Source of the DNA: Candidatus Eiseniibacteriota bacterium
GTDB lineage: Bacteria > Eisenbacteria > RBG-16-71-46
Assembly: GCA_963717505.1 (NCBI GenBank)
Contig: OY970342.1
Coordinates: 2,464,001 to 2,528,000 of the forward strand
DNA: 64,000 nucleotides
Direction of reading: 5' to 3'
Under the pieces are notes generated by a model that was given only the letters and a program-made list of their open reading frames with translations, did no database searches and was not told where the DNA came from. Made by a program: the position numbers and the translations under genes. The first letter of the stretch is position 1. Every line of letters starts with the position of its first letter. Below, in pieces: positions 31,140-51,379 of this stretch.

Positions 31140-31955
31140 ATGCCCGCGCCCGTCTCGACCACCGCCGCACCGCAGCATCAGCTCGCGGTGTTCATCGATT
31201 TCGAGAACATCGCGCTCGGCCTCAAGGGCGACGGGCGTTTCGACGTGCGCCGGGTACTCGACCGCCTGCTCGAGAAGGGCAAGGTGATCGTCAAAGTCGC
31301 CTACGCCGACTGGAACCGCTTCCGCCAGTACACCCAGTCGCTGCACGAGCACGGCATCGAGCTGATCGAGATTCCCGGCCGCGCCACCAGCGGCAAGAAC
31401 TCGGCCGACATCCGCCTGTGCGTCGACGCCATGGACCTGAGCTGGAGCAAGGAACACATCGACACCTTCGTCATCATCTCGGGCGACAGCGATTTCTCGC
31501 CGCTGGTCTCCAAGCTCAAGGAGAACGGCCGGCGGGTGATCGGGCTCGGCATGAAGGGATCGACCTCGCCGCTGCTCGCCAACGCGTGCGACGAGTTCGT
31601 CTACTACGAAGAGATCGAGTCCGGCGGCGGTGGACCGGCGGCCGAGAAGCCGGGGCGCAACGGCGAGGACGCGTTTCACCTGTTGGTCGATACGGTGCGC
31701 GCGCTCCAGCGCGAAGGCTTCGACCTGATCCAGGCGTCCCTGGTCAAGGACACCATGAAGCGCAAACGCCCGGCGTTCAGCGAATCGGCGCTCGGCTATG
31801 GCAGCTTCAGCGACCTGCTCGAAGCGGCCGAAAAGGCCGGGGTCGTTGAGCTGCGCCAGGACGAGCGCAGCGGGACCTACGTGGTCACCGGGGTCAGCGA
31901 GCGACCGATTCGAGCCGCGCGATCCAGCGCGCCTTCACGCCGCCGGCGGTCCTAG
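31140..31955 (+). CDS. NYN (LabA/DUF88, PIN-like) domain protein with C-terminal OST-HTH/LOTUS
   Basis: AVFIDFEN, AYADW, KNSADIRLCVDA, ISGDSDFSPL, ACDEF; C-terminal KRPAFSE..GY.SFSDLL. Confidence 0.88.
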   Translation: MPAPVSTTAAPQHQLAVFIDFENIALGLKGDGRFDVRRVLDRLLEKGKVIVKVAYADWNRFRQYTQSLHEHGIELIEIPGRATSGKNSADIRLCVDAMDLSWSKEHIDTFVIISGDSDFSPLVSKLKENGRRVIGLGMKGSTSPLLANACDEFVYYEEIESGGGGPAAEKPGRNGEDAFHLLVDTVRALQREGFDLIQASLVKDTMKRKRPAFSESALGYGSFSDLLEAAEKAGVVELRQDERSGTYVVTGVSERPIRAARSSAPSRRRRS

Positions 31956-32965
31956 TTCGGCGGCGTGAACACGAACGGCGTCTGGAAGGAGGTCGAGCCT
32001 CCGGAGATCGCCGGGAACTTCCACTCGCGGATCTGCGACAACGCACACTGTGCGAGCCGCGAGGAGCCGACTGTGTTCTCGACGATGGTCGCTTCGGTTA
32101 CGGCACCCGACGCGGACACGGTCAGTGCCACGACCAGCTTGCCTTTGAGCCCGGGGTCGCGCTTGAGCTCGTTGCCGTAGCAATACTGGATGCCGGCCGC
32201 GTACCTCTGGATGATCGCCAGCAGCGACGCATTGCTCCGGTAGACTCCGGGCAGCGCGCCGGTGCCGCCACCGGTGCCACCCTCGGTGCCCGAGCCGCCC
32301 TCGACACCGCCGCCGCCGGTTCCTCCCAACTCGCCGATCGAGATCCGCGACCCGGCGACCGTCGAGCCACCGAGGTCGACCAGCGCGCCGGTGCCGGCGA
32401 CGTCCGTGGCGACCGCGCCGACTTCGGCGCCGGAACGTCCGGAACGCACGCCGCGCGAGCGGCGGCGTCCGGCCGGCGCCTGGGTCGCGGCCGTGGGCGA
32501 CGAAGACGCCAGTGACGACGACAGGTTCTTGAGGCTCCGGTCGAGCGCCTCGGTCGATTTCTCGAGGCGTGTGGCGACCTCCTTCGTGGCGCGCGAGCGT
32601 CCGACCTGGCCGGCATTGGGCGCCAGCGGCTTCGCCGGCTCGACTCTCCGAGCGCGCGGCGGTGGCGGCGCGGGCTTCGGCGTCTCGACCTGGGCAGGTG
32701 CCTCCGGCGCGGAGGACTGCTCGATCGTCGCCTGCGCCGCAGGTCCGGGAGCGGCCGCCTTGGGCTTCTCGAGGATCAGGCGCGCGATGCGCGGTGGCAA
32801 TTGTTCGACGGTCAGCACCGCCTGCGGGCGCGCCGGCCACAGAAAGACCGCGAGCAGGAACCCGAGTCCGATCGCCGACGAGACGATCAGACAGCGGTGG
32901 AACAACGGGTCGTTGGGGCCGAACGGGGCCCGGCGGTACGCCTGTGCGGAGGCGATGACAGCCAT
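31952..32965 (-). CDS. TonB-like energy transducer with AgmX/PglI(GltG)-type C-terminal domain
   Basis: One N-terminal TM, Pro/Ala- and Gly-rich linker, then IQYCYGNELKRDPGLKGKLVVALTV...LAQC..IREWKFP...PFVF. Confidence 0.82.
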   Translation of the reverse strand: MAVIASAQAYRRAPFGPNDPLFHRCLIVSSAIGLGFLLAVFLWPARPQAVLTVEQLPPRIARLILEKPKAAAPGPAAQATIEQSSAPEAPAQVETPKPAPPPPRARRVEPAKPLAPNAGQVGRSRATKEVATRLEKSTEALDRSLKNLSSSLASSSPTAATQAPAGRRRSRGVRSGRSGAEVGAVATDVAGTGALVDLGGSTVAGSRISIGELGGTGGGGVEGGSGTEGGTGGGTGALPGVYRSNASLLAIIQRYAAGIQYCYGNELKRDPGLKGKLVVALTVSASGAVTEATIVENTVGSSRLAQCALSQIREWKFPAISGGSTSFQTPFVFTPPN

Positions 32966-32974
32966 GGTCGTCTC

Positions 32975-33469
32975 CTAGGTGTGCTTGATCACGGCGAGCG
33001 CGATGTCTTCGAATCCACTCTGCCCAAGCGTGTACATGACGCGCTGCAACACACGGAATTCGATGTCGCGATCGCCCTGGATGGTCACGGTGCGAGCCTG
33101 CGCCTCGGAGTCACCCTGGTGATGGGCAATATCGTCGAGTTGTTGCCACATGGCGTCGAGTCGGTCCGCCATGGGCTCGATCAACATGCCGTCGCTGCTC
33201 CCGACTTCGCTCACGCTGGCCACGCGCTCGCCGCCGACCAGGATGTCGTCGTCGTCGATCGCGACGACCAGCGACGACACCATGGCGTTTTCCGCAGTCG
33301 ACGCCGGCAGCTCGAGTCCCGGCGGAGGCACGGAGACCTCGCCGCCGGCCACGAACGCCTTGAGCACGAACAGCAAGAGCGTGGTCAGGATGTCCATCAT
33401 CGAAGTCATGCGCAGGCCGCCGGGGGCCGAACTTGGGTTTCGCCACTTTCTCTTGCGTTGCCGCCTCAC
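32975..33469 (-). CDS. ExbD/TolR-family stator subunit (AglQ/S-like), with Asp
   Basis: LRMTSMMDILTTLLLFVL TM, LELP, IQGD..I.F..L..VM.T...GF..IALAV. Confidence 0.88.
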   Translation of the reverse strand: MRRQRKRKWRNPSSAPGGLRMTSMMDILTTLLLFVLKAFVAGGEVSVPPPGLELPASTAENAMVSSLVVAIDDDDILVGGERVASVSEVGSSDGMLIEPMADRLDAMWQQLDDIAHHQGDSEAQARTVTIQGDRDIEFRVLQRVMYTLGQSGFEDIALAVIKHT

Positions 33470-33933
33470 GATGCCTCCTCGCCCTGAAGTCCTGCCTGGG
33501 ACAGGCCCGCCGCGCGCGCCAGGTCCATCACGGCGATGATGACTTCGTACCGGGTAGTTTCCTCGGCAACGATCTTCACGTCACGAACGTCCGGATGAGC
33601 GGCTACGAATGCATCGAGCGCCGCGCCAAGCTGGTTCCAGGCCGCGACTCCTGCCGGGCCGTCGCTGCCTCGGGGAATCACCTGGGCGGGCGCTCCGGTC
33701 GCTTGCACGACATAGGCCGCTTCGGTGATGCGCACCGTGACCACCACCGGTTCCTCGTTCGAGGTCGCCGCCGCATCGCCCGGCAGTCTCATGTCGATGA
33801 CCCGGATCTCCATGAACACCGCCGAGAGCAGCAGCATGGGGATCAGCACGATGAACAGGTTCATGAGCGGCAACAACTCGAGGTCCTCAGTGACCTTCTG
33901 CCGCCACGCTCGCTTTCTGCCGAACACCTTCAT
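33466..33933 (-). CDS. ExbD/TolR-family stator subunit (AglQ/S-like), Asp replaced by Asn
   Basis: LELLPLMNLFIVLIPMLL TM, IDMRLP, TRYEVIIAVMD..R.AG. Confidence 0.85.
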   Translation of the reverse strand: MKVFGRKRAWRQKVTEDLELLPLMNLFIVLIPMLLLSAVFMEIRVIDMRLPGDAAATSNEEPVVVTVRITEAAYVVQATGAPAQVIPRGSDGPAGVAAWNQLGAALDAFVAAHPDVRDVKIVAEETTRYEVIIAVMDLARAAGLSQAGLQGEEAS

Positions 33934-33937
33934 GGAA

Positions 33938-34636
33938 CTAGCGGCTCCCCTGGACGACGCGACCTTGGCCTCCCGACATCGGCACGACCTGCGCCGCGCC
34001 GCGCGCAACCGCCGACATCGCGATCGCACGACTCAGCCGGATGCTCATGTCGTCCACCTGGTCGGCGATGCCCTCGACCATCGAAGACAGCCAGCCGTGG
34101 AGCAGCAGCGTCGGCACTGCGACCAGAAGTCCGAAGGCCGTGGTGTTGAGTGCTTGCGAGATGCCGACCGCCAGGAACGCCGAGCGCTGCGCCGGATCGG
34201 CGGCGCTCACCGACGAAAACGCGATCATGAGCCCGAAGATCGTCCCGAGCAGACCGAGCAGCGTGGCGACATTGGCCAGCATGTTGAGATGGGCGAGACG
34301 CTTGGACAGCGGCGGCAGCACCAGGGTGGCAGCATCGTCGGCTGCGGACTGGAGACGCGCCTCGTCGCCGGGGCCGGCCATCAGGATCGCCTGCGCGACC
34401 CGAGCGACCGGCGTCTTGGACAAGAGGCTCAGGTTCCGGGCTCCCGCCAGGTCGCCTCGCCCCACGGCGGACACCAGGTCGTCGGTCAACTTCCTGCTGT
34501 TCACCGCGCCCGCCCCGAGGATCACGATCGTCCGTTCAGCGACGATCGCGATGATGGCGACCCCTGCGGCCAGGATGAGGTGCATGAACTCGCCACCTTC
34601 CTTGTAGAAGGAGGCGACGGAAGAGAAGTCGATCAT
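33938..34636 (-). CDS. MotA/TolQ/ExbB proton-channel protein (AglR-like)
   Basis: EGGEFM TM1, IVAER, ATLLGLLGTIFGLMIAF, GISQALNTTAFGLLVAVP. RBS AGGAGA. Confidence 0.92.
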   Translation of the reverse strand: MIDFSSVASFYKEGGEFMHLILAAGVAIIAIVAERTIVILGAGAVNSRKLTDDLVSAVGRGDLAGARNLSLLSKTPVARVAQAILMAGPGDEARLQSAADDAATLVLPPLSKRLAHLNMLANVATLLGLLGTIFGLMIAFSSVSAADPAQRSAFLAVGISQALNTTAFGLLVAVPTLLLHGWLSSMVEGIADQVDDMSIRLSRAIAMSAVARGAAQVVPMSGGQGRVVQGSR

Positions 34637-34932
34637 GGTTGAATCTCCTTTTGTTCTCCCACGGGCCCGGCAAGCACGGTGCTCCAAACCGGGAGCGCCG
34701 TGGCCTGGCCGAGCTCGAGGCTCGTCCTGAGGTAGCGTCGATGATGGAAATCCATGAAACGCCGCTGATCGCGGGTGGTGATGAACAACACCTGGGGCAC
34801 CGGAATCTCGCCTTCGATGTACACGTCCTCGAGACGCCGGGGTGCTCCGCTCTTCGTCTCTGCGCTCGAAACACCCGCGAGACACAAGGTCAGCAGGCCG
34901 GCGAGCGCGCCGGCAAGAATCGATCGGTTCAC
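34633..34932 (-). CDS. Small secreted protein, GltF/CglF-like
   Basis: 99 aa, signal peptide, LEDVYIEGEIPVPQVLFI motif. Sits between the TPR lipoprotein and the motor genes, as gltF does. Confidence 0.55.
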   Translation of the reverse strand: MNRSILAGALAGLLTLCLAGVSSAETKSGAPRRLEDVYIEGEIPVPQVLFITTRDQRRFMDFHHRRYLRTSLELGQATALPVWSTVLAGPVGEQKEIQP

Positions 34933-35867
34933 TTTTCCTCCCGCTTGCCGGCCAGGTCCTTGGCACTGCCGCTCATCACGCCCGCGATTCCGTCGGGGTC
35001 ATCGTGCGAGCGCTCCCAGTAACGCGCGAACCAGCGCGTCGCGGCCTCGTCGTCGAGCATGTAGAACTTTTCCAGGATCGCGAGGTTGTAGTAGGGACCG
35101 GGGAGTGTCGGCTCGAGGTCGATTGCCTTGAGGAATGCGCGCCGCGCCGATTCCGGGTCGCCGGCCCGCAGCCGGGTGATGCCGAAGTTGTTCTGGTTGG
35201 CGGCACTCTTCGAGTCCTCGGCGACGACGCGAGCCGCGAGCTCGCCGGCGCCATCCGGCTGATCGCCGCGCAGCGTCAGGTAGACGTACGCCGGGCCGCC
35301 CTCGCGCGGATCGGGGCGGGTCATCTCGGTCAGCACCTGCTGGGCCAGGTCGTGGCGGTCGAGCGCGTCATAGTGGAGCGCGAGTCCCGCCAGCAGCGCC
35401 TGCGGCACGCCGTTGGGGAAGGCCTTCGGTCGCTGGCGCGCGGCCTCGAGCATCTGGATCGCCTCCTGGTGGCGACGGGTCTCGAAGTAGAGGCGCGACA
35501 GGAGTGACAGAGCCGGCGCGTAGTTCGGGTCACGCGCCAGCGACGCCTTGAGCTCGACTTCGGCGCGCGCGGTCGAATCGGCGCCGGCGTAGAGCTGGGC
35601 GATCCGGAACGGCCAGTACGGCTCACCGGGCGCCAGGGCCGACTGCGTGCGCGCCTCGGACACCTCGCGATCGAGGGTCGATCCTTCGACCTTGGGCAGA
35701 GCCGCCGAGGGTCGCGAGGTCAGCGGCTGCCAGCCGAAGACCTTGAGTCCGCAACCGGCGAGCGCCGGCGCCAACGCCAGGAGCGCGACCAGGGCAGCCC
35801 ACGAACCCTGCGCCGCCCGTACCGGCGTGGTGCGCTGCGAGGGCGCGGCGAGTCGGTTCGAGGTCAT
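34929..35867 (-). CDS. TPR lipoprotein (GltE/AglT-like)
   Basis: Lipobox LAPALAGC, TPRs (DPNYAPALSLLS, ANQNNFG...AFLKAIDLEP, PYYNLAILEKFY..D..AA..WF.RY). ATG overlaps the upstream TGA. Confidence 0.75.
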   Translation of the reverse strand: MTSNRLAAPSQRTTPVRAAQGSWAALVALLALAPALAGCGLKVFGWQPLTSRPSAALPKVEGSTLDREVSEARTQSALAPGEPYWPFRIAQLYAGADSTARAEVELKASLARDPNYAPALSLLSRLYFETRRHQEAIQMLEAARQRPKAFPNGVPQALLAGLALHYDALDRHDLAQQVLTEMTRPDPREGGPAYVYLTLRGDQPDGAGELAARVVAEDSKSAANQNNFGITRLRAGDPESARRAFLKAIDLEPTLPGPYYNLAILEKFYMLDDEAATRWFARYWERSHDDPDGIAGVMSGSAKDLAGKREEK

Positions 35868-38800
35868 TTCGGGCTCCGTTGACGTTCGGCCGGCGTGGCG
35901 GCGGCGAGCGGGTGCTCCGCCTCCGGCATGTAGAAGAAGCGACGGGCCAGTCGCTGCCAGAGGGATTCGCGCGCTTTGGCGACCCATTCGCTGGCGGCCG
36001 TCTCGTCGCGCTGTGCGCGCAGCAGGTCCGTCCATACCTGCTCGCCGCGGGCGTGGAATGCGTCGGCCTGGCCGAGCAGCACGTCCTCGTAAGCGATCAG
36101 GTCATCCCCGGTTAGATCGGCAGGACGCTCGCTCTTCTCCAGCGCCTCGCCGAAACCGATCAGCGCTTCGCCAATGCGAAATGCCGAGGCTTGCGCCCAT
36201 TTCGCAACACCGACCTCGGCGCTGCGTCCGTAGGCGGCGATCAGGCTGTCCAGCAACCGCTGGCGGACCGTGATCGACTTGTCGAGCGGCTGGGTCAGAC
36301 GCGCACCCACGTAGGCGCGGCGTGCCTCATCACCCTGGAGGAAGCGTACCTCGGCGATCAGGTCCTTCGACGCCAGGTCGGGTCGCAGGCCCGCGCGCCG
36401 GAGGTACTCGGCCAGGTGCGATGCCGGACGCGTGGTATCCGGGGCCGCGGGTTTCGTCTTAGCTTTCTTCTTCGCCGGCGGCGCCGGTTTCGGCAGCAGG
36501 CTCGAGATCGGCTTATCGGTTCCCAGTGCGGCCACCTCACGACGCGCAAGCTTCTCGTAGATCTCCATCGCCATCTCGACGTCTTCCGGGTGGAGCCGGA
36601 TGTAGGCGATCCGGGTCGCGTCCGCGCGCCCGGTCAGCCCGGCGGCCTCGAGCAAATCGGCTGACTTGAGCAGGGCTTCGCCGGCGCTCTCGTCGTCGGG
36701 GTGACTGGCGGCGAACGCAGCCCAGGCTTCGGCGGCCCGCTCGCGCTCGCCCGATTTCTCCCAGGCGTGTGCGATCTGGAGCCGCGCGTCACGGACGTAT
36801 TCGCTTCTCGGGAAGTCGCGGATCAGCTCCTCGAGCGCCTGGATGCCCGCGGCGCGCGATCCGGCGGCCAACCACGCCAGTCCGGCGCGATACTTGGCCA
36901 CGTGGGCGTGTTCGTAGTTCGGCCAGCGCACGGCGACCCGCTCGAACAGCGCCGCATGCTTCTCGTGTGCGGTCGAGTCCTTGGCGACGGCCGCGTCGGC
37001 GTGCCGGAAGTAGCAAACCGGAATCGCCGCAGACGCGTAACGCGCCAACGAGTCCACGCCAGCGCGTTGCGCGGTAGCCAGCGCGCGTTCATACGCCGCG
37101 CCGGCATCCTCGAAACGCTCGAGGCGAAAGAACGCGTCGGCGCGCAGCCGGGCCGCGATCGGCAGTCGCTTGTCGCTCGAGTCGCGGAGCGCCATTCGGC
37201 CGAAGTCCTCGGCCGCGCGCTCGAACCAGCCATGGGCGAAGGCGAGATTGCCCTGGCGCCAGCGGACGTCGGCCGCCTGCGCGTGCTCGGGGTAGCGCGC
37301 GAGCAACGCGTCGCCGGCCTCGAGCACCGCGCGCGCCAGCGAGTCGTTCCGGGTGGTGTCGCCCGTGGCGCGCGTTCGGCTGTACCAGGAATCGGTCACT
37401 GCCAGTCGCTGCCACAAGGCGAGTGCCACGATGCTGTCGACCCCCGAAGCCGCGGCCGCCTGGTAGTGGACCAGGGCTTCGGCGGGATCGCCCAGCTCGG
37501 CGGCGGCTTCGGCGGCGAACAGGCGCAGCGACGGAGCTTCGGCGTCGTCCGGCCATGCGCGCAGCACGTGCTCGTAGAGTCGACGCGATTCACGCCAGTC
37601 ACTTTCGACATCCTTCTCGCGCGCCAGGCGGTGATGATGCTTGGCGACCGCGAGCATCGAGGTGCGCGCGAACGTGGCGCCCGCAACGCGGACCGAGTCG
37701 GACGTCTGGGCCTCGTACCACTTGCCGCCGGGCGCGAAACCGGCCGCGTGCTCGAGCTGGGCGCGACGGGCGTCGTCCGGACGCTCCGCGCGCCGTTGGG
37801 TCTCGATCATGCGTTCGGCCGCGAGGAGTGCGCCCGGATCCAGCGGGTGGCGCTCGAGCACCAACTGGTCCACGGCCGCCGCCTCGGCGAACATGCTGTA
37901 GCGGCGGAAGTGCTGGCCGAGGGCCAGCAGCAGTCGCAGGTCGTAGGGCCGCCGGCCGACGCGATCGAAGTAGGCGGTGAAGGCTTCGGCGCCGCCGGCC
38001 CGCGACAGGGCGTGCATCAGGTAGGTCTCGGCCTCGTCTTCGACGTCGGCCTGGATCGCGGCGCGTCCGGCCGAGGCGTACAGGTCGAGCACGACGCGGA
38101 ACGCGTCCACGGCCTCGAGGAAGCGGTCTTCGTTGAAGTACGCCCAGCCCTGTTTGAAGCGCGCGATGGCGGTCAGACTCGTGTCCGGACCGGCGGCCGC
38201 GTGCTCGTAGAGATCGACGCAGGCCGAGAAGTGTTTCTCGGAGAATTCCAGGTCGCCCATGCGCAGCCACGACTCCTGAACGTAGGGGGATTCGGGGTGC
38301 GTGGTCACCAGTGTGCGGAACAGGGTCGCTGCTTCAGGGTCGGCGCCGTCGGCCAGGATCATGCCGGCGTTGAACAAGACGGCGTCGCGGCGTTCGAAGT
38401 CGGCGTCCTCAGCCAGGATTTTCCGATAGAGCGCGAGCGCCGGGTCGTAGGTCAGCACCGGCAGGGTCGAAGCCGCCTGACCTGCCTCCTGATCGCGCAG
38501 GTAGGCCTCCATCTGCTGGCGGAAGCGATGGCGGGCCGCGACCAGCAGCAGATCGGCGAGATGGAAGCGCATCTCACCGCGCGCGGGCGACGCCGGGTGG
38601 CGTTCCAGGAACGCAGTCATATGGGCGATCGACGCGCTACGCCAGGCTTCGGCGTGCGGATCGTCCAGGGTGTCGGCGGGAGCCGCGGCCGCGAGCGAAT
38701 CCGACGCCGACAGCCCCACGCTCTGCGCATACGATGAAGCGGCCAGACCGTAGTCGATGCCCTCGCGCTCGGCATCGAGGTCGGCGAGCGTGCGCTCGAT

Positions 38801-43081: not shown

Positions 43082-43762
43082 TCACCAGGACCCGCGGAGC
43101 CAGGCCAGCTCCAGACGGGCGTTCCATTCGCCAAACGATTCGCGTTCACGCACGACCGTGCCGCCGCTCTGGTGGGCGGTGTCGAGCGCGAACACGCGAT
43201 GGTCCACTTCCAAGCCCAGCGCCCACGCGGGGCCGATCGACCTGCGCACGGCGAGTCCGCCGCCGCCGATCCACTCGGTGACCGGATCGAACGCGACCTC
43301 GATCGGCGTTCCGCCCGCGTCGAGCGTCACGTGATCGGGGCTCCACCCCAGGTGAATCAGTCCGGTGCTGGCGATGGCGGCGACCTCGGTGCCCCACAGG
43401 GTGCCGAGTCGCGCACGCCCGACGACTTCGCCGGTGGTCGAGCGCACGGTCGGGGACGGAGCGCTGGCGCCCAGATCCTGCGTGGTCGCTCCACTCCACA
43501 GACGAAGTCCGGCCGACCAGCGCGCAGCACCCGCGAGCGCCTGAATGCCCCACGCGGCGCGGGGCTCCGCATTCCACTGGTAGTTCGAAAGCGAGGCGGC
43601 GGGCACCCACGTGCCGGCGAGTACCCCGACCGACAGCCAGCGTCCGCCCTGCGGCCCGGCGTCGGCGTCACACGCCGTCGCCGCGTGCAGCATCACCGCG
43701 GCCGCCAGTGCGGCGGCCGTGCTTGCCACGCGAGCCCGCGTCGCATCCCTGCGAGCGCCCAT
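43082..43762 (-). CDS. Putative small outer-membrane beta-barrel protein
   Basis: Signal peptide, alternating hydrophobic/Gly/aromatic strands, C-terminal WNARLELAWLRGSW. Confidence 0.55.
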   Translation of the reverse strand: MGARRDATRARVASTAAALAAAVMLHAATACDADAGPQGGRWLSVGVLAGTWVPAASLSNYQWNAEPRAAWGIQALAGAARWSAGLRLWSGATTQDLGASAPSPTVRSTTGEVVGRARLGTLWGTEVAAIASTGLIHLGWSPDHVTLDAGGTPIEVAFDPVTEWIGGGGLAVRRSIGPAWALGLEVDHRVFALDTAHQSGGTVVRERESFGEWNARLELAWLRGSW

Positions 43763-43763
43763 G

Positions 43764-44405
43764 TCAGGGGCCCACACTCAATTCGAGCCCGACCGGCAGG
43801 ATCTCGTACTGGGCCGAGGGGAACGGCGTCACGATCAGCGAGTCCTGGCCGTTCTGCAGTTCGACCTCTTCGCCCGACCCGAGATAGCAGACGAGGAACA
43901 ATCCGGCTGGCGGCGCACCCGAGGTGTCCATCGGCGCCGATCCGGTGAACGCCAGATCGATGTGCTGGATCAGGTGGTCCCAGCCGGTGACCGCGCGGGT
44001 GGCGCGTCCGACCGAGACCGAGTTGGCCAGCAGGCTGTCGATGTTCGCGGCCATCAGCTCGCGCGGGGCATCGGGGTGCAAGGTCACCTGGGCGGGCGTG
44101 ATCGTGCTGCTCGCCCGCACCTCGGCGATCACGAATCCGGTGAGGATCGACCGATAGGTGATCGCGGCCCGCACGTTGATCGGCAGGCTGCCGCCGGCCG
44201 GCACGATCTGCCCGGGCGTCACGTTCGACGCCGCGAAGTCGAGACGCGTCCAACGGTCCTCGATCTCCGGCTCGTCGAACGCTTCGCACCCCGCGAGCAG
44301 AACGGCGGCGAGCACGACCGACACCCGGAGCGCCCCGCGCAGTCGAGGTCCGGGACGGCCGGCGCTCGCGCGCCGGCCCCCGTGACGGAGTGGAGTGTGC
44401 ATCAT
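43764..44405 (-). CDS. Hypothetical lipoprotein
   Basis: Lipobox AVLLAGC, beta-rich mature region. ATG overlaps the upstream stop. Confidence 0.65.
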   Translation of the reverse strand: MMHTPLRHGGRRASAGRPGPRLRGALRVSVVLAAVLLAGCEAFDEPEIEDRWTRLDFAASNVTPGQIVPAGGSLPINVRAAITYRSILTGFVIAEVRASSTITPAQVTLHPDAPRELMAANIDSLLANSVSVGRATRAVTGWDHLIQHIDLAFTGSAPMDTSGAPPAGLFLVCYLGSGEEVELQNGQDSLIVTPFPSAQYEILPVGLELSVGP

Positions 44406-46053
44406 CAATTGACGACCACCAGGCGCTGCATCTGGCGGACCGCATCGGCATTCAGGCGCAGGAAGTAGACGCCCGCTGCGGCACGTGCGCCCTTCTGATT
44501 GCGACCATCCCAAATGACCTCGTGGAGTCCGGCCCCGAACGTGCCGTCGAAGCTCTTCACGCGACGGCCGAGAGCGTCGTAGATGCCGAGCGAGACTTCG
44601 CGGTCGCCGCCCGCCGGCAACACGAACGCGATGCGGGTCGAGGCGAACACCGGGTTGGGCGTGATGCCGACCAGCATCGGCCGGGCCGGCAGAATCGAAG
44701 CATCGCCTCCGCGCAGAGCGGTCTGGGCGGTCGCGACCGGGCCCCCTTCGTAGGCCGAGGCCACGGCGACGCGAAGCAGGACGTCCGGCGAACCGGCGGC
44801 CGCCGCCAGCTCGGCATTGCCGATCGTGAGCGCATGATTGCCGGCCGGGAGCGAGCCTGCCGACTGCTGCGCCAGCGAACGGCCGCTGCGGGTGTCGACC
44901 AGCTCGAGCGTGACGTCCGCCTGGTCGGTCAACAGGAAGCTCGCGACCGGGGCAGCGCCACCGTGGACCGCGAGGTTCTGGACTTCGACGCCCAGGCCCC
45001 ACAGGCGCATGCCGCTGCCGTCGGTCCACTGATCGACCGAGACGCCGCTCGGCGAGCCGACGCGCTCCATCCGCCGGCGCCGCGATGGTCGCGTACGTTG
45101 CGGAACGGCACGTGGAAGGCGCGCGGACGCGCCAGGTCGCCCTTGAGCTCGGCCACCGGAGTCAGGTCGGGCGCGAACTTGCGCACGACGCCCTGATTCG
45201 GAGCCGCCGCGTAGAGGTTGCCCCACTGGTCGGTGTCGAGCGACGTCACGACGTCGGCGTCGTGCTGCACGTCGTCGACCCACGCGAAGCTGCCGGCCGA
45301 TGACGCAGGTGCACGATACGGCGCGTGTGAGCGTCGGCGACATAGACGTCGCGGCGTGTTCGCGCCGTCCGTGCGTCCGACGGCGATCGCCATCGGACCG
45401 GCGAAGCGGCCACGGCCGCTGCCCAGCTCGCCGATCGCGGCGACGCGGCGCGCGCCATTCGTGGTCAGCGCGTACGCGACCACGCGATTGCCGCCGGTGT
45501 CGGCGACGTAGAGGACGTCGTCGCCGGGGACGAACGGCGTGCCGCCGTCGGAGAACGCCACGTCGTGCGGCTCGTGTAGGCCGGCGATCTCGAAGCTCGG
45601 CGCCAGGTCCATGTCGCCGAACTCGGTCCGAGCGTCGAGCACCAGGACGCGGTCGTTGCCGGCGTCGGCGACGTACACGCGGTCGTTCTCGTCCACCGCC
45701 AGTGCCGCGCGGGTTCCTGAGCGCCCCGAACGGACGGCCCTGGCCGTCGATACGCGCGGAGGCTGCGGCCGACCTCGCCGAACACCAGACGGTTCCAGCG
45801 CGGATCGGAGACGACCTGGAAGGTCCGCGACTCGACGTAGGGGAACACGTCGTAGACGTCGACGTTCTCGATGCGTCACCGTCGCGTAGGGATTCGCGAA
45901 CAGGTCGCGACCCAGCTGCTCACGCGCCACGCCCCGGGTCAGGGCGTCGAGGCCGAGCTCGGGTGCGATCGCGCGATCGATCGAACGTCCCCGCACCCAG
46001 CGGCGAGCCGCGACCAGGGCCAGGGTCAGTGTCAGCAGGATGGGTCGTCGCAC
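44405..46053 (-). CDS. NHL-repeat beta-propeller protein with C-terminal FlgD-Ig/T9SS-like sorting domain (multiple frameshifts)
   Basis: RBS GAGGAG + GTG. NHL repeats (VYVADAGNDRV, LYVADTGGNRV, F.GP..IAV). C-terminal PNP..ST.I.F.LP...V.L.IYD..GR.V...G.H...WDG.....AGVYFLRL. Confidence 0.72.
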
Positions 46054-46084
46054 AGGATGCTCCTCTCGCGAGATGCCGCGACCC

Positions 46085-47227
46085 TCAGAACCGGAAACCG
46101 ATCCCGGTTTCGAGGATGTTCGCCGAGTAGTTGTTGCTGTTGAAGTAGCGCTCGTCGTTGAGCCACAGCGCTGAAGCGGCCGCAACGTCGGATGGTCGGC
46201 CGAGATGCCGTCGAGGTCGAGATTCAGAGCGACGCCGAACAGGTGCGACGACAGCGTCCGCCATGCGGTAGTCACCGGTCCGGTAGCCGTCGATGCCGTT
46301 CGCGTCGGTGTATTCGTCGCGGTAGAAGTCGGCCGCGCGTCTGCGTGTACCAGCGGTACTCGTAGCGCGCGAACACGCCGTGCGTGACGTACTGGCTGAG
46401 CTTGGTGCCGACCTCGTGCGAGTCGATGCCCCAGTCGTCGTTGTAGAGGCGGTAGTGGAGCTTCAGGCTCGAGCGGTTCGGCAGGTACTGGTTGAGCTTC
46501 GACGAACGCGTCGCGGCGCTGGCGCTGGTCCGGGTGGCGCTCCGGCACGTTGGTGCCGCCGGCGTAGACGTTGCGATACGGGTTGTGCTGCAGGCCGTCG
46601 ACCAGGTTGTACTCGACGCCGACGCGCATCATGGTGCGTCGGCGTCAGCACCTGGGTCGCGACCGCGTTCCAGTGGAGCGTGGTCTTGGTGTCCGCGTCG
46701 GTCTGGGTGTCGTCGTCGGCCAGCGGATCGATCGCGTCCCAGCCGTAGCTGGTGCCCACCGACAGGTTGAGCTGCGAGTCCATGAAGGTCGCGGTGTAAC
46801 GGGCGCCGAGCTGCTGGGCCAGGTAGTCGGTCTCGCTCGAGAAGTAGTAGTCGACCGACGCGTGGCCGCGGCTCAACTCGCCCTGCGAACTCGTTGCGGA
46901 TCTTGACGAAGTCCTGTAGGCGTTGCCCGAGATCGGGCGGCTCGCGGTGGTGATCGCGTCCACCGCCTCCGGGCTGCCGACCGGAGCGTCGATCGCGGGG
47001 ATCATCACGCGCTCGTTGTTCCAGTGGAAGTTGAGTCCGAGATCGCTGCGCAGCTTGAACGCGTAGTCGCCGAGGAACGATCGCACCGACACCTGGTCGG
47101 AGTCGGTGAACAGGCGCAGCATGGACCCCAGGTTCTGGTCCTCGAGCTCCATCATCGAGCCCGAGGCCGGAGCCGCGGCGGCGCAAAGTCCGAGTGCGAG
47201 CGCCACGATGCCGCACCTCAGTTGCAC
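46085..47227 (-). CDS. DUF3570-family outer-membrane beta-barrel (multiple frameshifts)
   Basis: GTG-QL start overlapping the DUF4266 CACN-stop. VDAITTAS, S.E.DY, NPYR, ER.PD.R.R, YRLY.DDWGI.SH, RY.Y.Q..ADFY; ends IGFRF. Confidence 0.8.
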
Positions 47228-47478
47228 GCGCAGCCCCCGCCGGCGCCGCCGTTGCCGCCGGTCGAGCCCTCGCGGGCCTCGAGCGACTTGGTGAGGCGCG
47301 CGTCCTTGCGGGCTTCTGCGTCGAACGACATGATGCGATCGGTCAGGCGTTCGCGCTGATAGGCGCTCACCGCCCCGCAACCGGTCACCAGGAAATGCAG
47401 GGCGACGATCAGGGCCAGCGCGAACAGGCGGAGCGCGAAGCCCGAAGCCGTGGTCGCCGCCGGGAACGTGCGTTTCAT
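47218..47478 (-). CDS. DUF4266-family small lipoprotein
   Basis: Lipobox LVTGC, V.AYQRE.L...M, REGSTGGNGGAGGGCACN C-terminus. Confidence 0.85.
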   Translation of the reverse strand: MKRTFPAATTASGFALRLFALALIVALHFLVTGCGAVSAYQRERLTDRIMSFDAEARKDARLTKSLEAREGSTGGNGGAGGGCACN

Positions 47479-48038
47479 GGCGCGTCTCCTTCCGTGGCGC
47501 GCGTCGCCATCGGCGGACGCGCCAGCTCCTGTTTGGTCACCTGGCGCAGCGCGGCCAGCGACGCGGCGTCCGAGCCGGACGTGGCATGCACGACGTCGCC
47601 GCTGCGATCGAGGACGACGGTGTACGGAACGTGCTGCAGGTCGAGCGTGCGGGCCAGCCCGTCGGGCCCGTCGTGATAGACCGGGAGCGACAGGTGGTAG
47701 CGCCGCAGAAGCGCTTGACGTTGCGCGCGTCGTGGTCGATGGAGACCGCCAGCACGCGGCCGCCCTGCTTGGCGATCTCGGCATGGAGCGCGTCGAGCTC
47801 GGGCAGCTCGCGCCGGCAGGGCGCGCACCAGGTCGCCCAGAAGTTGATGACCACGACCTCGCCCTCGAGTGAGGCCATCGGCACGCGGGTGCCGTCGAGG
47901 GCTACGCAATTCGTGCCCGGCGAGCGCGGCGCGCGTCCGCGTCCTGGCCGGCGCCTGCGGCACCCGCAGCGTGCCGCCGCCACCAGCAGTGCGGCGAGTG
48001 CCGAGCAGCGCAGGGCTCATGGCTCGAATCCGGTTCAC
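47475..48038 (-). CDS. TlpA-family thiol-disulfide oxidoreductase (frameshifted)
   Basis: VVINFWATWCAPCRRELP, VLAVSID, then after a shift HVPYTVVLDRSG (cis-Pro). RBS GAGGAG. Confidence 0.85.
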   Translation of the reverse strand: MNRIRAMSPALLGTRRTAGGGGTLRVPQAPARTRTRAALAGHELRSPRRHPRADGLTRGRGRGHQLLGDLVRALPARAARARRAPCRDRQAGRPRAGGLHRPRRAQRQALLRRYHLSLPVYHDGPDGLARTLDLQHVPYTVVLDRSGDVVHATSGSDAASLAALRQVTKQELARPPMATRATEGDAP

Positions 48039-48049
48039 GCCCGACTCCT

Positions 48050-50055
48050 CTACTTGTACTGGGCGCCGAGCAGCACCCAGAGGTTGAAGTCGGCGCGTTC
48101 TCGCTCGGTCAGCGCGGGCGCCGTCGGATGCGAACCCATGCCGGCACGCGAGCCGAGGCCGAGGACGTAGTCGATCAGGCGCGACCGGCGCGGGAACGCC
48201 GGCGTCACTTCCTGGTTCTGCATGCTCATCGACTCGCCCGACAGGTTGATGTAGCCGCGCGGGAAGATGCGGTCCTCCATCGTCGTGTCCGGCACGGCGG
48301 TCAGGTCGAGGTTGCCCGCGGCCGCGGTCGTGTCGGTGCCCACGATGGTCGGCTGGTGACAGCTGACGCACTTGTTGGCCACGATCGGACCGATCGTCGA
48401 TTCGTAGTTGATGATCCTGCCAGCTGCGACGCGGGCAGGTTGAGGTCGTGCGCCGGGACCATCGCCGCCATCGGGTTCGGATTGGTCACCACCGGGCCGC
48501 CGGCCGCACGGTCCTCGTGACAGCCGACGCACTTGTCGAACTCCTCGCCGGGCGCACGAAGAGGTGGGTGCGCTTGACGACGAAGCCGCGGCTCAGGTTG
48601 TCGAGCGTGGCGAAGCTGATCGGCGTGTTGGCCGGCACCTTGATGCGGAACGAGCCGTCGGACTGGACCGGCGCGATGCCGATCAGCGCGCGCTTCTCGA
48701 ACTCGTTGGCCGAGAAGTCGTTCATCTCACCGGGCCTGGTCGGACGCGCGGCGATGACGGCGATGCTGTCGATCACGTCGATGCCTTCGATCGGACGCTC
48801 CTGCCCGTCGCTGGTGCCGCGGTTGAACACGTCCTGCGCCAGGAACACGCCGTAGGTCAGGCTCTGTGTTCAACGTCGAGGGAATGACCGGCGGCTTGGT
48901 CTGCGGCGCCAGCAGCTGCGCGTCGTACTCGTTGGCCGTCGGATCGTTGTAGAGGAAGGTCAGGTTGTCGAGCGTGAACGTCGCCGGGTCGCCCGCGCGC
49001 CGGCGCCGGTCTGGGTCAGCGTGAAGGTGTAGAGGCCGTAGTCGACATCGCCTTCGGTCGCCGCCGGCAGCGTGTACGACGCGACGAACTGGTTGCCGCC
49101 GATCGGGTGCGGATACTTGAACGCACCGTAGGGCCAGGGCTCGCCGTCGTTGTTGACCTGCGCGGTCACCACGTCCCAGTGCTGCGAGCTCGGGCCGTTG
49201 GCCGGGTCGGCCGGGCCTTCTTCGAGCTTGAGCACCGCGATCGGACCCGCGTCCTCCTCGATCATCGTCGACTCGATCGCGATCAGGCGGCCGTCGGGCG
49301 TCGGCGACGGCGTGGAAGAAGTTGCGGTCGTGCGGGCCGAACTCGTGGAACGTGCCCGAGCCGTCGGGGTTGGTGAAGAACAGCGGGAAGCGGTTCATCG
49401 TCCCGAAGTGCTCCCAGCGCGTGTAGACGATGCGGCCGTCGGGGAGCAGGGTCGGGTCGAAGTCGTCGCTCTGGTTGAAGCTGATGCGCTCGAGGTTGCC
49501 GCCGTCGGCGTCGCAGACGTAGCAGGTGCTCGGCGGGCGCGTGGTTGTACTCGTCCATCTCGTCGTCGCGCGAGCTGGTGAACATGATCCGGTCGTCCGG
49601 CAGGTAGAGCGGGTCGAAGTCGTGGCCGCCGCCGGTGGTGACCTGGCGCAGCCCGGTGCCGTCGGCGTTGATCTCGCAGATGTTCTTCCGGGAGCCCCGG
49701 ACGGGCGCATCGAGAACAGGATCTTCTTGCCGTCGAACGACACGCACGGGTCCGAGATGCTGGCGCCGGCGAAGTTGGTGATCGGCGTGACCACGCCGTC
49801 CGGCGAGATCGGCGAGAGCTTGTACAGGTTGCTCGGCGCCCAGGTGCGATTGAGCGTCTCCTCGGCGTCGGTCTTGACGAACACCAGCGCCTCGGTGGTC
49901 GGCTCGTCCTGGATCAGGTCGTCAGGCGCGCTGTCGCGACAGCCGGCAAAGCCGGTCGTCAGCAATCCGACGGCGGCCAACGCGGCGAGCATGGCCAGCG
50001 CGTGGAACGCGCGGAGTCGCCGCGAAGCGGGTGCGGTAGCAGGATGTCGGGTCAT
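48050..50055 (-). CDS. Hydrazine-synthase-alpha-like lipoprotein: TolB/PD40 propeller + HZS-alpha middle domain + two c-type heme motifs (multiple frameshifts)
   Basis: Lipobox GFAGC; DP.VSFDG..ILFSM, DFDP.YLPD.RI.F.S.R, DGRIVYTRWEH, F..NPDG; DGSFRIKVPANTP; CVGCH (48517-48531) and CVSCH (48356-48370). Confidence 0.78.
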
Positions 50056-50086
50056 GGCGTGCTGATGCCTCCGAGGGTGGTGCGGA

Positions 50087-50749
50087 TTACGGGGCGATCG
50101 TGCGGTAGAACGAAAGCCCGATCGTCTGCTGGAGGTATCGGATAAGCCACGATGCCCTCGCCGTTACTTTGCGAGCCGAACACCGTGGCATGGACGACCT
50201 CGGCGCGGAGCGCCAGGTCGTTTCGGATGAAGAACTCGAGTCCGCCGCCGGCCGTGAGTGCGTTCTTGGTCACCGGGTCGGCGTTCAACGCGAGCGGCCG
50301 GGGGAAACCATCATCATCCCGTAGCCGAGGCTGACGTACGGCTGAAAACGCCCTGGCAGCGGGTAGCGGACCAGCGCGCTCACCGAATGGAGCACCGCGT
50401 GCACCGACTGGCCCGGGTTGTGGCCGAGCGAGCCTTCGTAGCCGAGCCAGGAGTTTGGGTTGTACGCGAGCCGAAGGGTGAATAGCGCTTCGGAGCCGAG
50501 CGAGCCGTAGCCCGGCGTCAGCGAGAAGCGATGCAGATACGGCCGCGTTCCCGGCTCCAGCCGATACGGTTCCGTCGCGATATCGGGCACGAGAGCCTCG
50601 AGGCCGGCCCGAGTTCGCGCCACTTCCTTGACGGCGGTCTTCTCCTCCTCGGTCGCGTCGGCGTTCACGCCGCTCGAAGACGCCGCCAGCGACACGACCG
50701 CCCATGCGACCACCCGCCAGAGTGCGGAACGGCGCAGTTGGAGGTTCAT
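50087..50749 (-). CDS. Outer-membrane beta-barrel protein (GltA/B/H-like small barrel; frameshifted)
   Basis: Signal peptide, RFSLTPGYG, LRLAY, FQPYVSLGYG, GGGLEFFI..LALRAEV. Restored end YLQQTIGLSFYRTIAP-stop. Confidence 0.65.
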
Positions 50750-51198
50750 GGCTCCACCCCCGCGAGGATCCAATCGAGGATGGCCTGGTAGCCGACGTCG
50801 GTGGTGTCCGCGAACGGCTTGGTCTGATGTGGTGTTCCGCCGGCGGCGAGCGCCAAAGGTTCGGTCAGGATCGGGCTCTGTTCCCGATCGGTCGCCAAGA
50901 CCTGAAGTGAGACCTGGTCGAAATCGAACTGCGGGTCCTTGTCTCCGACCGGCGACAGCTGCAGCGAGCCGCGGATGCCACCGCCGTGACAGTCGCCACC
51001 GGCATCGCAGCCATGGGCGGCCAGGATCGGCGCCACGTCCTGCTGGTATTGAGCAAAGCTCAACACCAGGCTGGTGCCGCCCCCGGGCGGCGCCGGCGGC
51101 GCCGTCGGTGAGCTGCAACCGTGCACGACGCCCGGCAGTGCGAGCAGCGTGACCGCGATCGATGCCATACGTCGCGGGGTCGGTTTCGTGTCCGCCAA
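50746..51198 (-). CDS. Small cytochrome c-like lipoprotein with CX5CH motif
   Basis: RBS GGAGAGG + TTG (alternative ATG 51168), lipobox VVHGC, F..Y...VAPIL..GCDAGGDCHGG, S.ILT.PL....H, YQAILDWI. Confidence 0.62.
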   Translation of the reverse strand: MADTKPTPRRMASIAVTLLALPGVVHGCSSPTAPPAPPGGGTSLVLSFAQYQQDVAPILAAHGCDAGGDCHGGGIRGSLQLSPVGDKDPQFDFDQVSLQVLATDREQSPILTEPLALAAGGTPHQTKPFADTTDVGYQAILDWILAGVEP

Positions 51199-51364
51199 TG
51201 CGTAGTCCTCTCCGAGCCGTGCGTCGTGCACGCGTCCCACGGTCAAATCGCGGTGCGGAAGCGATGCCCGGCTCGCATCTGCGAACCGGTTGCCGCCTAT
51301 CGCCTTGCGACTCCGTGGCGTCTCGTTCAGCGCTCCCCGTCGATGGGAAAGCGCCAGGGATCAC

Positions 51365-51379
51365 GCAAGCGCCGGGCCA
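51365..51379 (-). promoter_or_regulatory. Sigma54 (-24/-12) promoter for the Agl-Glt-like/redox operon
   Basis: Minus strand TGGCCC-GGCGC-TTGC, one mismatch to TGGCAC-N5-TTGC with exact GG-N10-GC spacing, about 170 bp upstream of the first gene. Confidence 0.6.

Follow-up and report, generated by a model that had tools for sequence, protein, structure and literature searches.

The gliding motor of myxobacteria grew from a conserved core complex, and passages of Luciano et al. 2011 (PMC3169522) describe the function of that core in other bacteria as unknown. What might such a motor do where it is encoded together with haem and thiol proteins of the cell envelope? This question is raised by a locus of Candidatus Eiseniibacteriota in a 64,000-nucleotide stretch of assembly GCA_963717505.1 (contig OY970342.1, forward-strand positions 2,464,001 to 2,528,000), which we call the window. 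Scans against Pfam and NCBIfam outlined 19 tightly packed envelope genes on the minus strand at window positions 31952-51168. Genes 01-10 (module A) encode mainly outer-membrane and redox proteins, and genes 11-19 (module B) encode a proton channel, its partners, and tetratricopeptide-repeat (TPR) proteins. We put at roughly 55% the probability that the 19 genes constitute one conserved, sigma54-controlled functional system of this general kind, built from these two modules. The gene content and order, co-occurrence, module boundary, and conserved cofactor motifs of this set are observations, which we describe in turn.

Because the G+C content of the window is ≈69%, reading frames were picked by third-codon-position G+C, and gene starts were set from signal peptides, lipoboxes, and neighbouring stops. 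The domain scans covered 32 stop-to-stop minus-strand pieces (window 31.9-52.1 kb) and an intact Krumholzibacteriota copy of the cluster (L048), whose Pfam domains match those of the window copy; the presence or absence of families in the cluster refers to these two copies throughout. The scans confirmed the gene content and order that an initial annotation of the window had given. The tight packing that it had described was also borne out: with the chosen starts, the largest gap between genes is 31 nucleotides, and eight junctions are clear 1- or 4-nucleotide overlaps of the ATGA or GTGA type. By sequence reading, membrane helices, a lipobox, or a signal peptide mark each of the 19 products as an envelope protein.

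A profile of gene 10 orthologs (alignment A1) was searched against one genome per species and yielded 80 public loci, to which the 19 cluster proteins were compared by tblastn. By label, 27 of these loci are Candidatus Eisenbacteria or Eiseniibacteriota, 10 Krumholzibacteria or Krumholzibacteriota, 4 Latescibacteria or Latescibacterota, 5 Gemmatimonad, and 1 Fibrobacteraceae; 28 are unlabelled, and the 5 labels of other phyla all come from one series of metagenome-assembled genomes (MAGs) and were not trusted. All carriers found are uncultured MAGs, and six genomes of the window's own family, belonging to different genera, carry the full set. Sequence reaching ≥9 kb upstream of gene 10 was available at 52 loci, of which 40 contain all nine upstream genes and 12 contain eight; in the latter, the missed gene was the one searched with a 68-residue DUF4266 query. 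Downstream, ≥9.9 kb was available at 40 loci; 29 of these have genes 11-16 complete, and the other 11 have five of these six genes. Both flanks were available at 35 loci, and the complete set of 19 is present in 19 of these. In seven, only the DUF4266 match is missing, and one locus each lacks DUF4266 plus gene 15, gene 15 alone, gene 14, or gene 19 (at the end of a flank); the losses in the other five are taken up below. Gene order and strand are constant except in 3 loci flagged by the best-hit rule. Genes that belong to no family are widely retained (gene 08 in 72, gene 09 in 77, and gene 12 in 70 of the 80 loci), and gene 03 is the most conserved of the 19, with a median identity of 68% over 60 loci. 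This synteny, together with the shared promoter described below, supports the earlier proposal of a single, conserved, co-oriented 19-gene unit, and the 80 loci bear out the statement that related gene sets occur in other bacteria.

Linkage of the two modules was assessed in 201 genomes from the window's phylum, where a match at E ≤1e-30 was counted as an ortholog of the HzsA-like protein (gene 03) and a score over the NF033768 cut-off as the GltG-type tail (gene 19). The HzsA-like protein was present in 63 genomes and the GltG tail in 71; 59 genomes contained both, 4 (78-91% complete) only the HzsA-like protein, 12 only the GltG tail, and 126 neither. These counts include one unpublished genome (G026), without which both markers occur in 58. 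Hence, the phylogenetic profile of motor and redox genes that had been suggested as a check shows that the halves co-occur (59 genomes with both compared to 16 with a single marker). The two markers lie on one contig in 30 of the 59 genomes, always 10-19 kb apart, and on separate contigs of fragmented assemblies in 29. Presence is patchy by family (49 of 86 genomes in f1, 6-7 of 12 in f13, 2 of 8 in f7, and 0-1 of 41 in f10).

The boundary between the modules is visible in two distant genomes, G184 and G101, whose HzsA-like proteins are 48 and 47% identical, respectively, in one search and 52 and 49% in another. In both, the break falls precisely at the junction of genes 10 and 11, leaving two adjacent divergent operons, with gene 11 at the head of the motor operon. 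In the intergenic region that the operons share, sigma54-type sites point in both directions, each with 1 mismatch: CGGCAC-N5-TTGC is oriented toward gene 01, and TGGAAC-N5-TTGC toward gene 11. We read the split at this junction, with adjacency kept and sigma54-type sites in both directions, as a sign of two modules of one system, and the halves appear to be co-regulated in these genomes. The initial annotation had named three grounds for rejecting its proposal, namely grouping of the motor genes with ordinary Tol/Exb systems, separate transcription of the redox half, and a lack of co-occurrence of the halves in other genomes; there are indeed two transcription units in G184 and G101, but the halves co-occur and remain neighbours.

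In the window, a sigma54-type -24/-12 element, TGGCCCGGCGCTTGC (51365..51379, minus strand), is located ≈200 nucleotides upstream of the gene 01 start codon at 51168. Sites were scored against a sequence that we take to be the sigma54 consensus. Matches with ≤2 mismatches are not enriched in the window (61 compared to 57 expected), and the element counts as a promoter because it is conserved across loci, not because of enrichment. In 28 of 53 loci, the 450 nucleotides upstream of gene 01 contain a site with ≤1 mismatch and an unaltered GG/GC, whereas control 450-nucleotide segments of the same loci do so at a rate of 0.6%; many of these conserved sites read TGGCCC-N5-TTGC. No such site at ≤1 mismatch was found in the 6 Krumholzibacteria-labelled or 3 Latescibacteria-labelled loci. 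The sigma54-type promoter claimed at the outset is therefore upheld by its conservation. Inside the cluster, 6 terminator-like sites (7.0 expected) and 0 sigma70 promoter-like sites were counted, which is uninformative.

What kind of machine does module B encode? Gene 16 (33938..34636; all coordinates of cluster genes are on the minus strand of the window) specifies a TolQ/ExbB-type proton channel (MotA_ExbB, 79.6 bits), and genes 17 (33466..33933) and 18 (32975..33469) specify ExbD/TolR-type subunits, designated ExbD1 and ExbD2 (PF02472, 58.9 and 38.5 bits). PF01618 once and PF02472 twice, in adjacent genes, is the stator composition of the Agl/Glt core complex. The channel scores higher on the tolQ model (58 bits; cut-off 221) than on the exbB model (43 bits), with both scores below cut-off, and ExbD1 is likewise matched better by the tolR model (31.5 bits; cut-off 127) than by the ExbD model. 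ExbD2 contains the membrane Asp in a MMDILT motif conserved in 33 aligned copies; in ExbD1, Asn replaces this residue in a PLMN motif conserved in 35 aligned copies. If the two subunits form a heterodimer, this Asn/Asp pair would leave the stator axle with only one site that can be protonated.

Gene 19 (31952..32965) encodes a 337-residue TonB-like protein that has ≈25 residues in the cytoplasm and a single membrane helix, followed by a Pro/Gly-rich linker and a GltG/GltJ-type C-terminal domain. It passes the AgmX/PglI (GltG/GltJ-type) model NF033768 (88 bits; cut-off 40) and scores 29 bits on TonB_C. On the GltG model NF033760 it reaches 69 bits (cut-off 650), over model positions 487-648 only, and it is not a full-length GltG with FHA domains. 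Two TPR genes precede the stator. Gene 13 (35864..40594) encodes a 1576-residue TPR protein with a signal peptide (TPR_6, YfiO) and a CpoB/YbgF-like domain that passes TIGR02795 (102.1 bits; cut-off 90.1), and gene 14 (34929..35867) encodes a TPR lipoprotein with a lipobox and matches to TPR families. The resemblance of genes 13 and 14 to GltD and GltE, respectively, is one of architecture only: in the NCBIfam scan no GltD model matched the cluster TPR proteins, and the sole match to a Glt TPR model was that of gene 14 to GltE (NF033758, 20.7 bits; cut-off 225). In one genome of the window's own family (G013, L002 8644-14787), genes 12 and 13 form one 2047-codon frame, either a natural fusion or an overlong call of an open reading frame (ORF) in G+C-rich DNA.

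The remaining genes of module B, 11, 12, and 15, gave no family in the Pfam and NCBIfam scans. Gene 11 (41507..42136), the first of the motor module, encodes a ≈190-residue periplasmic protein found in the Atlas only in hypothetical clusters of Eiseniibacteriota and Krumholzibacteriota, and gene 12 (40605..41507) encodes a 300-residue secreted protein. The labels 'PepSY-like' for gene 11 and 'coiled-coil' for gene 12 in the initial annotation come from sequence reading. The 99-residue secreted product of gene 15 (34633..34932) has a low-complexity stretch followed by a conserved strand-like motif, IEGExxxPQVLFITxRD, in which I15, G17, P22, V24, and F26 are invariant (alignment A3, 41 sequences). 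In an AlphaFold model of the M. xanthus machine (PMC11761067), most of GltF is disordered, and the protein contributes a beta-strand to the tail of GltG. Gene 15 recalls GltF by these properties, which suggests resemblance and not homology. The initial annotation had matched the layout of the seven genes at the downstream end to that of the Agl-Glt core. The layout of these genes and the AgmX/PglI tail support this view, but the core complex as delimited in the relevant passages of Luciano et al. 2011 (PMC3169522) consists of aglRQS plus gltC, D, E, and G, with gltF outside it. Moreover, no GltC counterpart was recognised in the operon scans, where only two TPR genes are present (a divergent counterpart is possible), and the GltD and GltE assignments are architectural.

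Module A contains the redox proteins. Gene 03 (48050..50055) encodes a lipoprotein with a lipobox and an HzsA-like dihaem beta-propeller (HZS_alpha, PD40), whose best PDB match is the alpha subunit of hydrazine synthase (5c2v_A, E 5e-19). Its CXXCH pair aligns to the CSGCH and CAMCH motifs of 5c2v_A, and two CXXCH motifs occur in 59 of 61 copies, as expected for the HzsA-like dihaem protein claimed earlier. The protein also matches TolB structures (E 4e-6), and it fails the hydrazine_alpha model NF052339 (17.3 bits; cut-off 800). The operon scans gave no further haem-protein or HZS-type family, and no HzsB/HzsC-like partner is evident there. Gene 03 is thus a fold relative of HzsA and not a hydrazine synthase. 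Gene 01 (50749..51168), for which no Pfam family was found, encodes a 139-residue lipoprotein with a lipobox and an invariant C-x4/5-C-H-G-G-G-x-R-G motif that appears as CX5CH in 32 of 56 copies and as CX4CH in at least 4 others; C54, C60, H61, and H114 are invariant (alignment A5, 54 sequences). Its AlphaFold2 (AF2) model is helical (pLDDT 83) and had no Foldseek match at E ≤0.001. The VIA fold matches FoxE (Z 3.8) and PccH (Z 3.3) are c-type cytochromes but within the noise range, and the nearest named Atlas cluster, PSCyt1 (planctomycete cytochrome c domain, 0.94), is a lead only. Gene 01 is probably a monohaem protein.

Three consecutive genes form a TlpA-DUF4266-DUF3570 trio. Gene 04 (≈47475..48016, start uncertain) encodes a TlpA/ResA-like thiol-disulfide oxidoreductase (AhpC-TSA/Redoxin; 63 bits on the TlpA model NF047696, below cut-off) with CXXC in 63 of 63 copies. 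Gene 05 (47218..47478) encodes a DUF4266 lipoprotein (PF14086, 50 bits; lipobox) with a C-terminal Cys-Ala-Cys in 48 of 48 copies. Gene 06 (46085..47227) encodes a divergent DUF3570 outer-membrane barrel, in which PF12094 is found as fragments in the window and at 139.8 bits, over the Pfam cut-off, in L048. The cluster proteins form a divergent DUF3570 branch that scores 110-140 bits over profile positions ≈111-381, whereas canonical copies score 270-360 bits. For the G017 copy, AF2 models a barrel that is 16-stranded by DSSP strand count (pLDDT 86.6, pTM 0.80); Foldseek matches it to OccK/OprD porins (E 1e-10), and its best superposition is on BcsC (TMq 0.56). In the model, the D-A-I-T-T-A-S motif lies in a long loop between strands 3 and 4, which by the usual topology rule would be extracellular or folded into the lumen.

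Flavin-based redox chemistry, also claimed for this operon, is doubtful: ApbE was not found among the 19 genes, and a degenerate DxxT(T/S)AS replaces the [S/T]GA[S/T] motif in DUF3570. The canonical motif is missing in 61 of 68 cluster copies. In this branch, the first canonical flavinylation site is deleted and D-A-I-T-T-A-S-R-P occupies the next site; a D-x-[IVL]-[ST]-x-A-S-R-P motif is present in 64 of 68 copies, with Thr (47), Ser (9), Ala (3), or Gly (5) at its fifth position. A published ApbE motif is D-x-x-[S/T]-G-A-[S/T], and in the experiments reported in one section of PMC12052999, Gly-to-Ala substitution still left ≈50% flavinylation. Since modification survives this substitution in part, flavinylation of the cluster DUF3570 is possible from its motif. 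The same genomes contain canonical TlpA-DUF4266-DUF3570 clusters elsewhere, with a 300-residue gene after DUF3570 that, by analogy with published clusters only, would be ApbE. An ApbE gene (280 bits) occurs 12 kb upstream of the 19 genes, at window 63335-63991 on the minus strand, and runs off the window end (G000 2527470-2528279); its open frame spans 810 codons. In the ≈8 kb upstream of the G013 copy, of which only two large ORFs were scanned, ApbE was not found. Two genes at L003 5686-11510 of G013, just upstream of its cluster copy, neither of which is at that place in the window, encode a P-type cation ATPase and a 974-residue multihaem cytochrome with 15 Paired_CXXCH_1 stretches and an MtrC/MtrF-like domain.

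The other genes of module A encode surface or outer-membrane proteins. Gene 02 (≈50052..50749) is a small outer-membrane beta-barrel (OMP_b-brl, 28.3 bits in L048; cut-off 28.7), and gene 10 (42147..43068) joins an SH3_3 domain to an OMP_b-brl barrel (39 bits in L048; 57.5 bits on OMP_myx_plus, TIGR04565, cut-off 60). The two barrels are related (hhalign probability 80%, E 1.4e-5). Gene 07 (44405..46053) encodes an NHL-repeat protein (NHL, FlgD_ig) with a type A sorting domain of the type IX secretion system (T9SS; TIGR04183, 31.2 bits, cut-off 23), and the genome encodes a SprA-like T9SS translocon. Gene 08 (43764..44405; ≈210-residue lipoprotein, lipobox LLAGC) and gene 09 (43082..43762; ≈225-residue secreted protein, barrel-like by eye) have no Pfam family. 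Their C-termini match with an hhalign probability of 96% over 40 columns, which may reflect overlapping frames in the extracted sequences. Overall, 5 of the 19 genes are of redox type, and their cofactor residues are nearly invariant.

Several observations weigh against a single system with an Agl/Glt-type motor. The 80 loci were found via gene 10 and are therefore copies of the cluster by construction, which does not establish independence of their parts, and the sampled genomes are kin and not independent. ExbB, ExbD1, and ExbD2 are all missing in 5 of the 35 fully flanked loci, in which gene 19 is kept. This stator-less variant, with the GltG-like gene directly after gene 15, was seen in L015/L028 (G009), L024, L029, L030, and L036; in G009, which is 94% complete, a genome-wide search did not find an ortholog of the cluster ExbB, and the best match was 31% identical. 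Five of the 12 genomes with only the GltG tail belong to family f3, in which the motor cluster occurs without module A and is accompanied instead by an alpha/beta hydrolase and a family-less protein of 1292 residues, so that the motor module is exchangeable. One such cluster (L012 of G032, 4038-17717, minus strand) comprises the GltG-like gene, two ExbD genes, ExbB, a small gene, and genes for a 1886-residue TPR protein, the 1292-residue protein, and the hydrolase. Unlike AglQ and AglS, both of which carry a mid-membrane Asp according to a section of a review (PMC9389320), the two cluster TolR-like subunits do not both have this residue, ExbD1 carrying Asn. Finally, frameshifts in the window copy are confined to module A, as they would also be if module A were decaying, and related contigs do not distinguish sequencing error from mutation, as no public run carries this strain.

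These frameshifts comprise at least 8 frame changes within 8.2 kb (window 42.1-50.3 kb), located by tblastn with intact orthologs in genes 02 (near 50290), 03 (≈49305 and ≈48427), 04 (near 47690), 06 (at least 2 between 46.3 and 46.6 kb), 07 (≈45070), and 10 (≈42537); genes 11-19, 08, 09, and 01 contain none. If module A of the window copy were truly decaying into pseudogenes while module B was kept, the broken stretch should end where it does, at the module boundary seen in G184 and G101, with zero frame changes in 31.9-42.1 kb, and this is the main argument for decay. In addition, most of the sites are away from long homopolymers. Among public reads, only two runs contained 7% of sampled words, and their contigs are from related strains or species (88-99% identity). 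These contigs lack the extra bases of the window at 50293/50295 and 48418/48423 and have an extra G at 48549; the indels are therefore specific to this assembly, as decay would also have it. Nevertheless, we consider decay rather unlikely and regard the frameshifts as probably an assembly artefact of unpolished long-read stretches, because dense frameshift patches occur elsewhere in the source genome, a single 4.16-Mb contig with a completeness score of only 86.7%. Two other such patches are at G000:C1:2950877-2962381 and 2397432-2401563. A dnaE-like gene (G000 2950877-2955269) is broken into at least 8 frame pieces, a PorV-like gene into 3, and the N-terminal part of sprA into several, and a second uvrA-like gene is split once, whereas rpoB and rpoC are intact, which implies that errors are patchy and not uniform. 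Moreover, the broken genes show no drop in codon-position GC or in identity to their orthologs.

How might the two modules work together? Module B would be an Agl/Glt-type force-transmission unit. Its stator would pair a TolQ-like channel with two unlike TolR-like subunits, only one of them having a proton-binding Asp. A short TonB-like protein of the GltG type would act as transducer, a small secreted protein as linker, and a giant TPR protein with a CpoB-like domain as scaffold; a TPR lipoprotein and two family-less periplasmic proteins would complete the unit. Module A would form an outer-membrane assembly. It would consist of two paralogous small barrels (one with SH3), a third barrel-like protein, a lipoprotein, a 16-stranded DUF3570-type channel, and a T9SS-sorted NHL propeller destined for the cell surface, together with a redox set made up of the dihaem HzsA-like propeller lipoprotein, the CX4-5CH lipoprotein, TlpA, and DUF4266 with its CXC. 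In this scheme, proton flow through the TolQ-like/TolR-like stator would drive the GltG-like protein, which the gene 15 linker and the TPR proteins would couple to the barrels and lipoproteins of the outer membrane. Acting via the TPR scaffold, the GltG-like protein would then pull on or gate the outer-membrane complex, and this work might energise a redox or transport reaction that involves the dihaem enzyme and a TlpA-DUF4266-DUF3570 relay. All physical contacts in this scheme, and the redox or transport role itself, we infer.

On sequence grounds, a machine of this sort, driven by the proton-motive force and acting in redox chemistry at the surface or outer membrane, is plausible. We propose tentatively, with clearly less confidence than we have in the system as a unit, that an Agl/Glt-type motor powers an outer-membrane redox complex composed of the dihaem HzsA-like protein, the monohaem lipoprotein, a TlpA-DUF4266 relay, and a possibly flavinylated DUF3570 channel. 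We prefer a redox role over motility or adhesion because the redox proteins are the most constrained part of the set, because the cytoplasmic parts that would couple the motor to a track are missing, and because the rest of the set survives loss of the dedicated stator.

Alternatively, the cluster could encode an Agl-Glt- or Agl-Nfs-like machine for surface transport or adhesion, in which the motor moves a platform carrying the T9SS-sorted NHL propeller, or a polymer leaves via the DUF3570 channel, and the haem and thiol proteins are accessories of maturation or regulation. The parts list does parallel the M. xanthus model: as drawn in PMC11761067, a TPR/GltG/AglRQS transducer bears three barrels in the outer membrane along with a lipoprotein and a beta-propeller adhesin at the surface. 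The cluster likewise encodes a lipoprotein and three small barrels (two being paralogs), and its NHL propeller has a sorting domain for which a SprA-like translocon is present in the genome; the structure on which the DUF3570 model superposes best, BcsC, is a cellulose channel. However, a cytoplasmic platform is missing, as the GltG-like protein has only its ≈25 cytoplasmic residues and the cluster scans revealed no FHA, GltI, or GltJ-type domains. Likewise, domain scans of the cluster and its flanks found no gene for polysaccharide synthesis or export in or beside the operon. The most conserved gene encodes the dihaem protein and not the propeller, and 5 of the 19 genes are of redox type, with almost invariant cofactor residues. 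We therefore consider surface transport or adhesion an unlikely primary role.

A second, specialised system for envelope tethering or outer-membrane maintenance, similar to Tol-Pal, would account for the higher scores of the channel and ExbD1 on TolQ and TolR than on ExbB and ExbD models, for the CpoB/YbgF domain of the giant TPR protein (102.1 compared to 90.1 bits), and for the TolB matches of the HzsA-like propeller; the SH3 domain could bind the cell wall. Yet scores on the Tol equivalog models are far below their cut-offs, Pal is absent, and the tail domain of gene 19 is of the GltG/GltJ type. In addition, a TolQ paralog at 3.81 Mb adjoins a full-length TolB-like gene (318 bits), and this locus, outside the cluster, is likely to be the organism's Tol system. 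The patchy distribution (63-71 of 201 genomes) fits an accessory system, and the redox genes would be left unexplained. A Tol-like role is thus improbable. Still less credible is that a DUF3570-type redox set and a Glt-type motor are two unrelated systems merely side by side. Each module does have stand-alone relatives, namely the canonical TlpA-DUF4266-DUF3570 clusters at other sites of the same genomes and the motor-only clusters of family f3, and 5 loci are without stator genes. However, every fully flanked locus keeps the linkage, 59 genomes have both markers compared to 16 with one and 126 with neither, the modules are still neighbours after inversion at their boundary, with sigma54-type sites on both sides, and the collinear form has one promoter and junctions of ≤31 nucleotides.

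Comparison with known systems places the two-module cluster among relatives of Glt/Nfs-type machines. In common with Agl-Glt and Agl-Nfs, it has a TolQ-like gene with two TolR-like genes, a TonB-like protein ending in an AgmX/PglI (GltG/GltJ) tail, two TPR proteins (one giant, the other a lipoprotein), and a small secreted linker, as well as several small outer-membrane barrels accompanied by a lipoprotein and a surface propeller; with non-myxobacterial core complexes it shares the clustering of the genes in one region. The stator and TPR proteins are likened here to AglRQS and GltD/GltE by layout and model scores. Unlike in the Agl-Glt and Nfs systems, GltC, GltI, GltJ, GltK, CglB, and FHA domains were not recognised in the cluster, one TolR-like subunit has Asn for Asp, the outer-membrane module is made of other families (DUF3570 and the SH3-barrel) with five redox genes built in, the promoter is of sigma54 type, and the hosts belong to uncultured phyla of the Fibrobacteres-Chlorobi-Bacteroidetes (FCB) group. 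The initial annotation had stated that a classical TonB-dependent receptor, a TolB-Pal pair, and cytoplasmic GltI/GltJ are absent, and the cluster scans found no TonB-dependent receptor, Pal, or FHA/GltI/GltJ-type domain. Specifically, no Plug or TonB_dep_Rec match was obtained in any of the 19 genes, so that a receptor partner for TonB-dependent uptake is lacking; the largest barrel is 16-stranded and plug-free in its model.

Clusters associated with flavinylation, as described in part of Meheust et al. 2021 (PMC8238504), combine DUF3570, DUF4266, a thioredoxin-like protein, ApbE, and sometimes DsbD. The 19-gene cluster resembles them in its adjacent TlpA-like, DUF4266 (CXC), and DUF3570 genes, whose order matches that in the canonical clusters which these genomes also carry. 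It differs from them in having no ApbE, in the deleted first flavinylation site and the retention of Gly in only 5 of 68 copies, in a DUF3570 score that is partial, in the presence of haem proteins instead, and in the placement of the trio inside a 19-gene motor operon. With HzsA (5c2v chain A), gene 03 shares the beta-propeller, the HZS_alpha middle domain, and two aligned CXXCH motifs, but it is a lipoprotein in a non-anammox lineage. Tol-Pal with CpoB has counterparts here in the TolQ/TolR-like stator, in the TonB/TolA-like transducer, in a TPR domain that scores over the CpoB cut-off, and in the TolB-like propeller; the differences are the lack of Pal, equivalog scores far below cut-off (TolB, 19 compared to 343), the separate likely Tol locus, and the patchy distribution. 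As in the GldLM-driven T9SS and gliding machinery of Bacteroidota, which belong to the same FCB superphylum, a proton motor is tied to a T9SS-sorted surface protein, but the cluster stator belongs to the MotA_ExbB/ExbD family and the operon contains no T9SS core gene.

The building blocks of the cluster are thus of known kinds. The literature that we found on DUF3570/DUF4266, the Glt/Agl core complex, and Eisenbacteria does not describe this gene set, the supplementary tables of Luciano 2011 and Meheust 2021 being outside the scope of that search; a Sci Adv 2023 paper concerns myxobacteria in the portion relevant here. As far as we have seen, what is new is the fixed union of the two modules, the ApbE-less DUF3570 branch accompanied by cytochromes, and the Asp/Asn stator pair.

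The genes that flank the cluster in the window differ from it in kind. Downstream there is a convergent NYN-domain gene unrelated to the cluster. Upstream, an unconserved 178-residue ORF is followed by a divergent type IV minor-pilin operon on the plus strand (to window 57677), which encodes a GspH/FimT-like protein, three N_methyl proteins, and PilY1. A perfect sigma54 consensus, TGGCACGGAGCTTGC, is located at window 52983-52997 (plus strand), 46 nucleotides upstream of this operon. Elsewhere in the window (22289-26997, plus strand) are a gene for an FHA-GAF-SpoIIE phosphatase, a gene for a 1019-residue spermidine-synthase-like/TPR protein, and a PP2C phosphatase gene.

With respect to the question raised at the start, the operon represents a complete envelope-spanning relative of the gliding machine, whose outer-membrane module is fixed across several candidate phyla. 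It extends DUF3570 systems to a form that lacks ApbE and is accompanied by cytochromes, which fits the interchange of flavins and cytochromes noted in a passage of Meheust et al. 2021 (PMC8238504). The problem of the orphan core complex becomes testable here through haem in genes 01 and 03, flavinylation of the DxxTTAS motif, and docking of the GltG-like tail. If the motor does power an outer-membrane redox complex, the cluster would encode a 'TonB-energised' electron-transfer or redox-enzyme machine at the surface or outer membrane, common to Eisenbacteria, Krumholzibacteriota, and Latescibacterota, and would provide the first functional context for the core complex outside myxobacteria.

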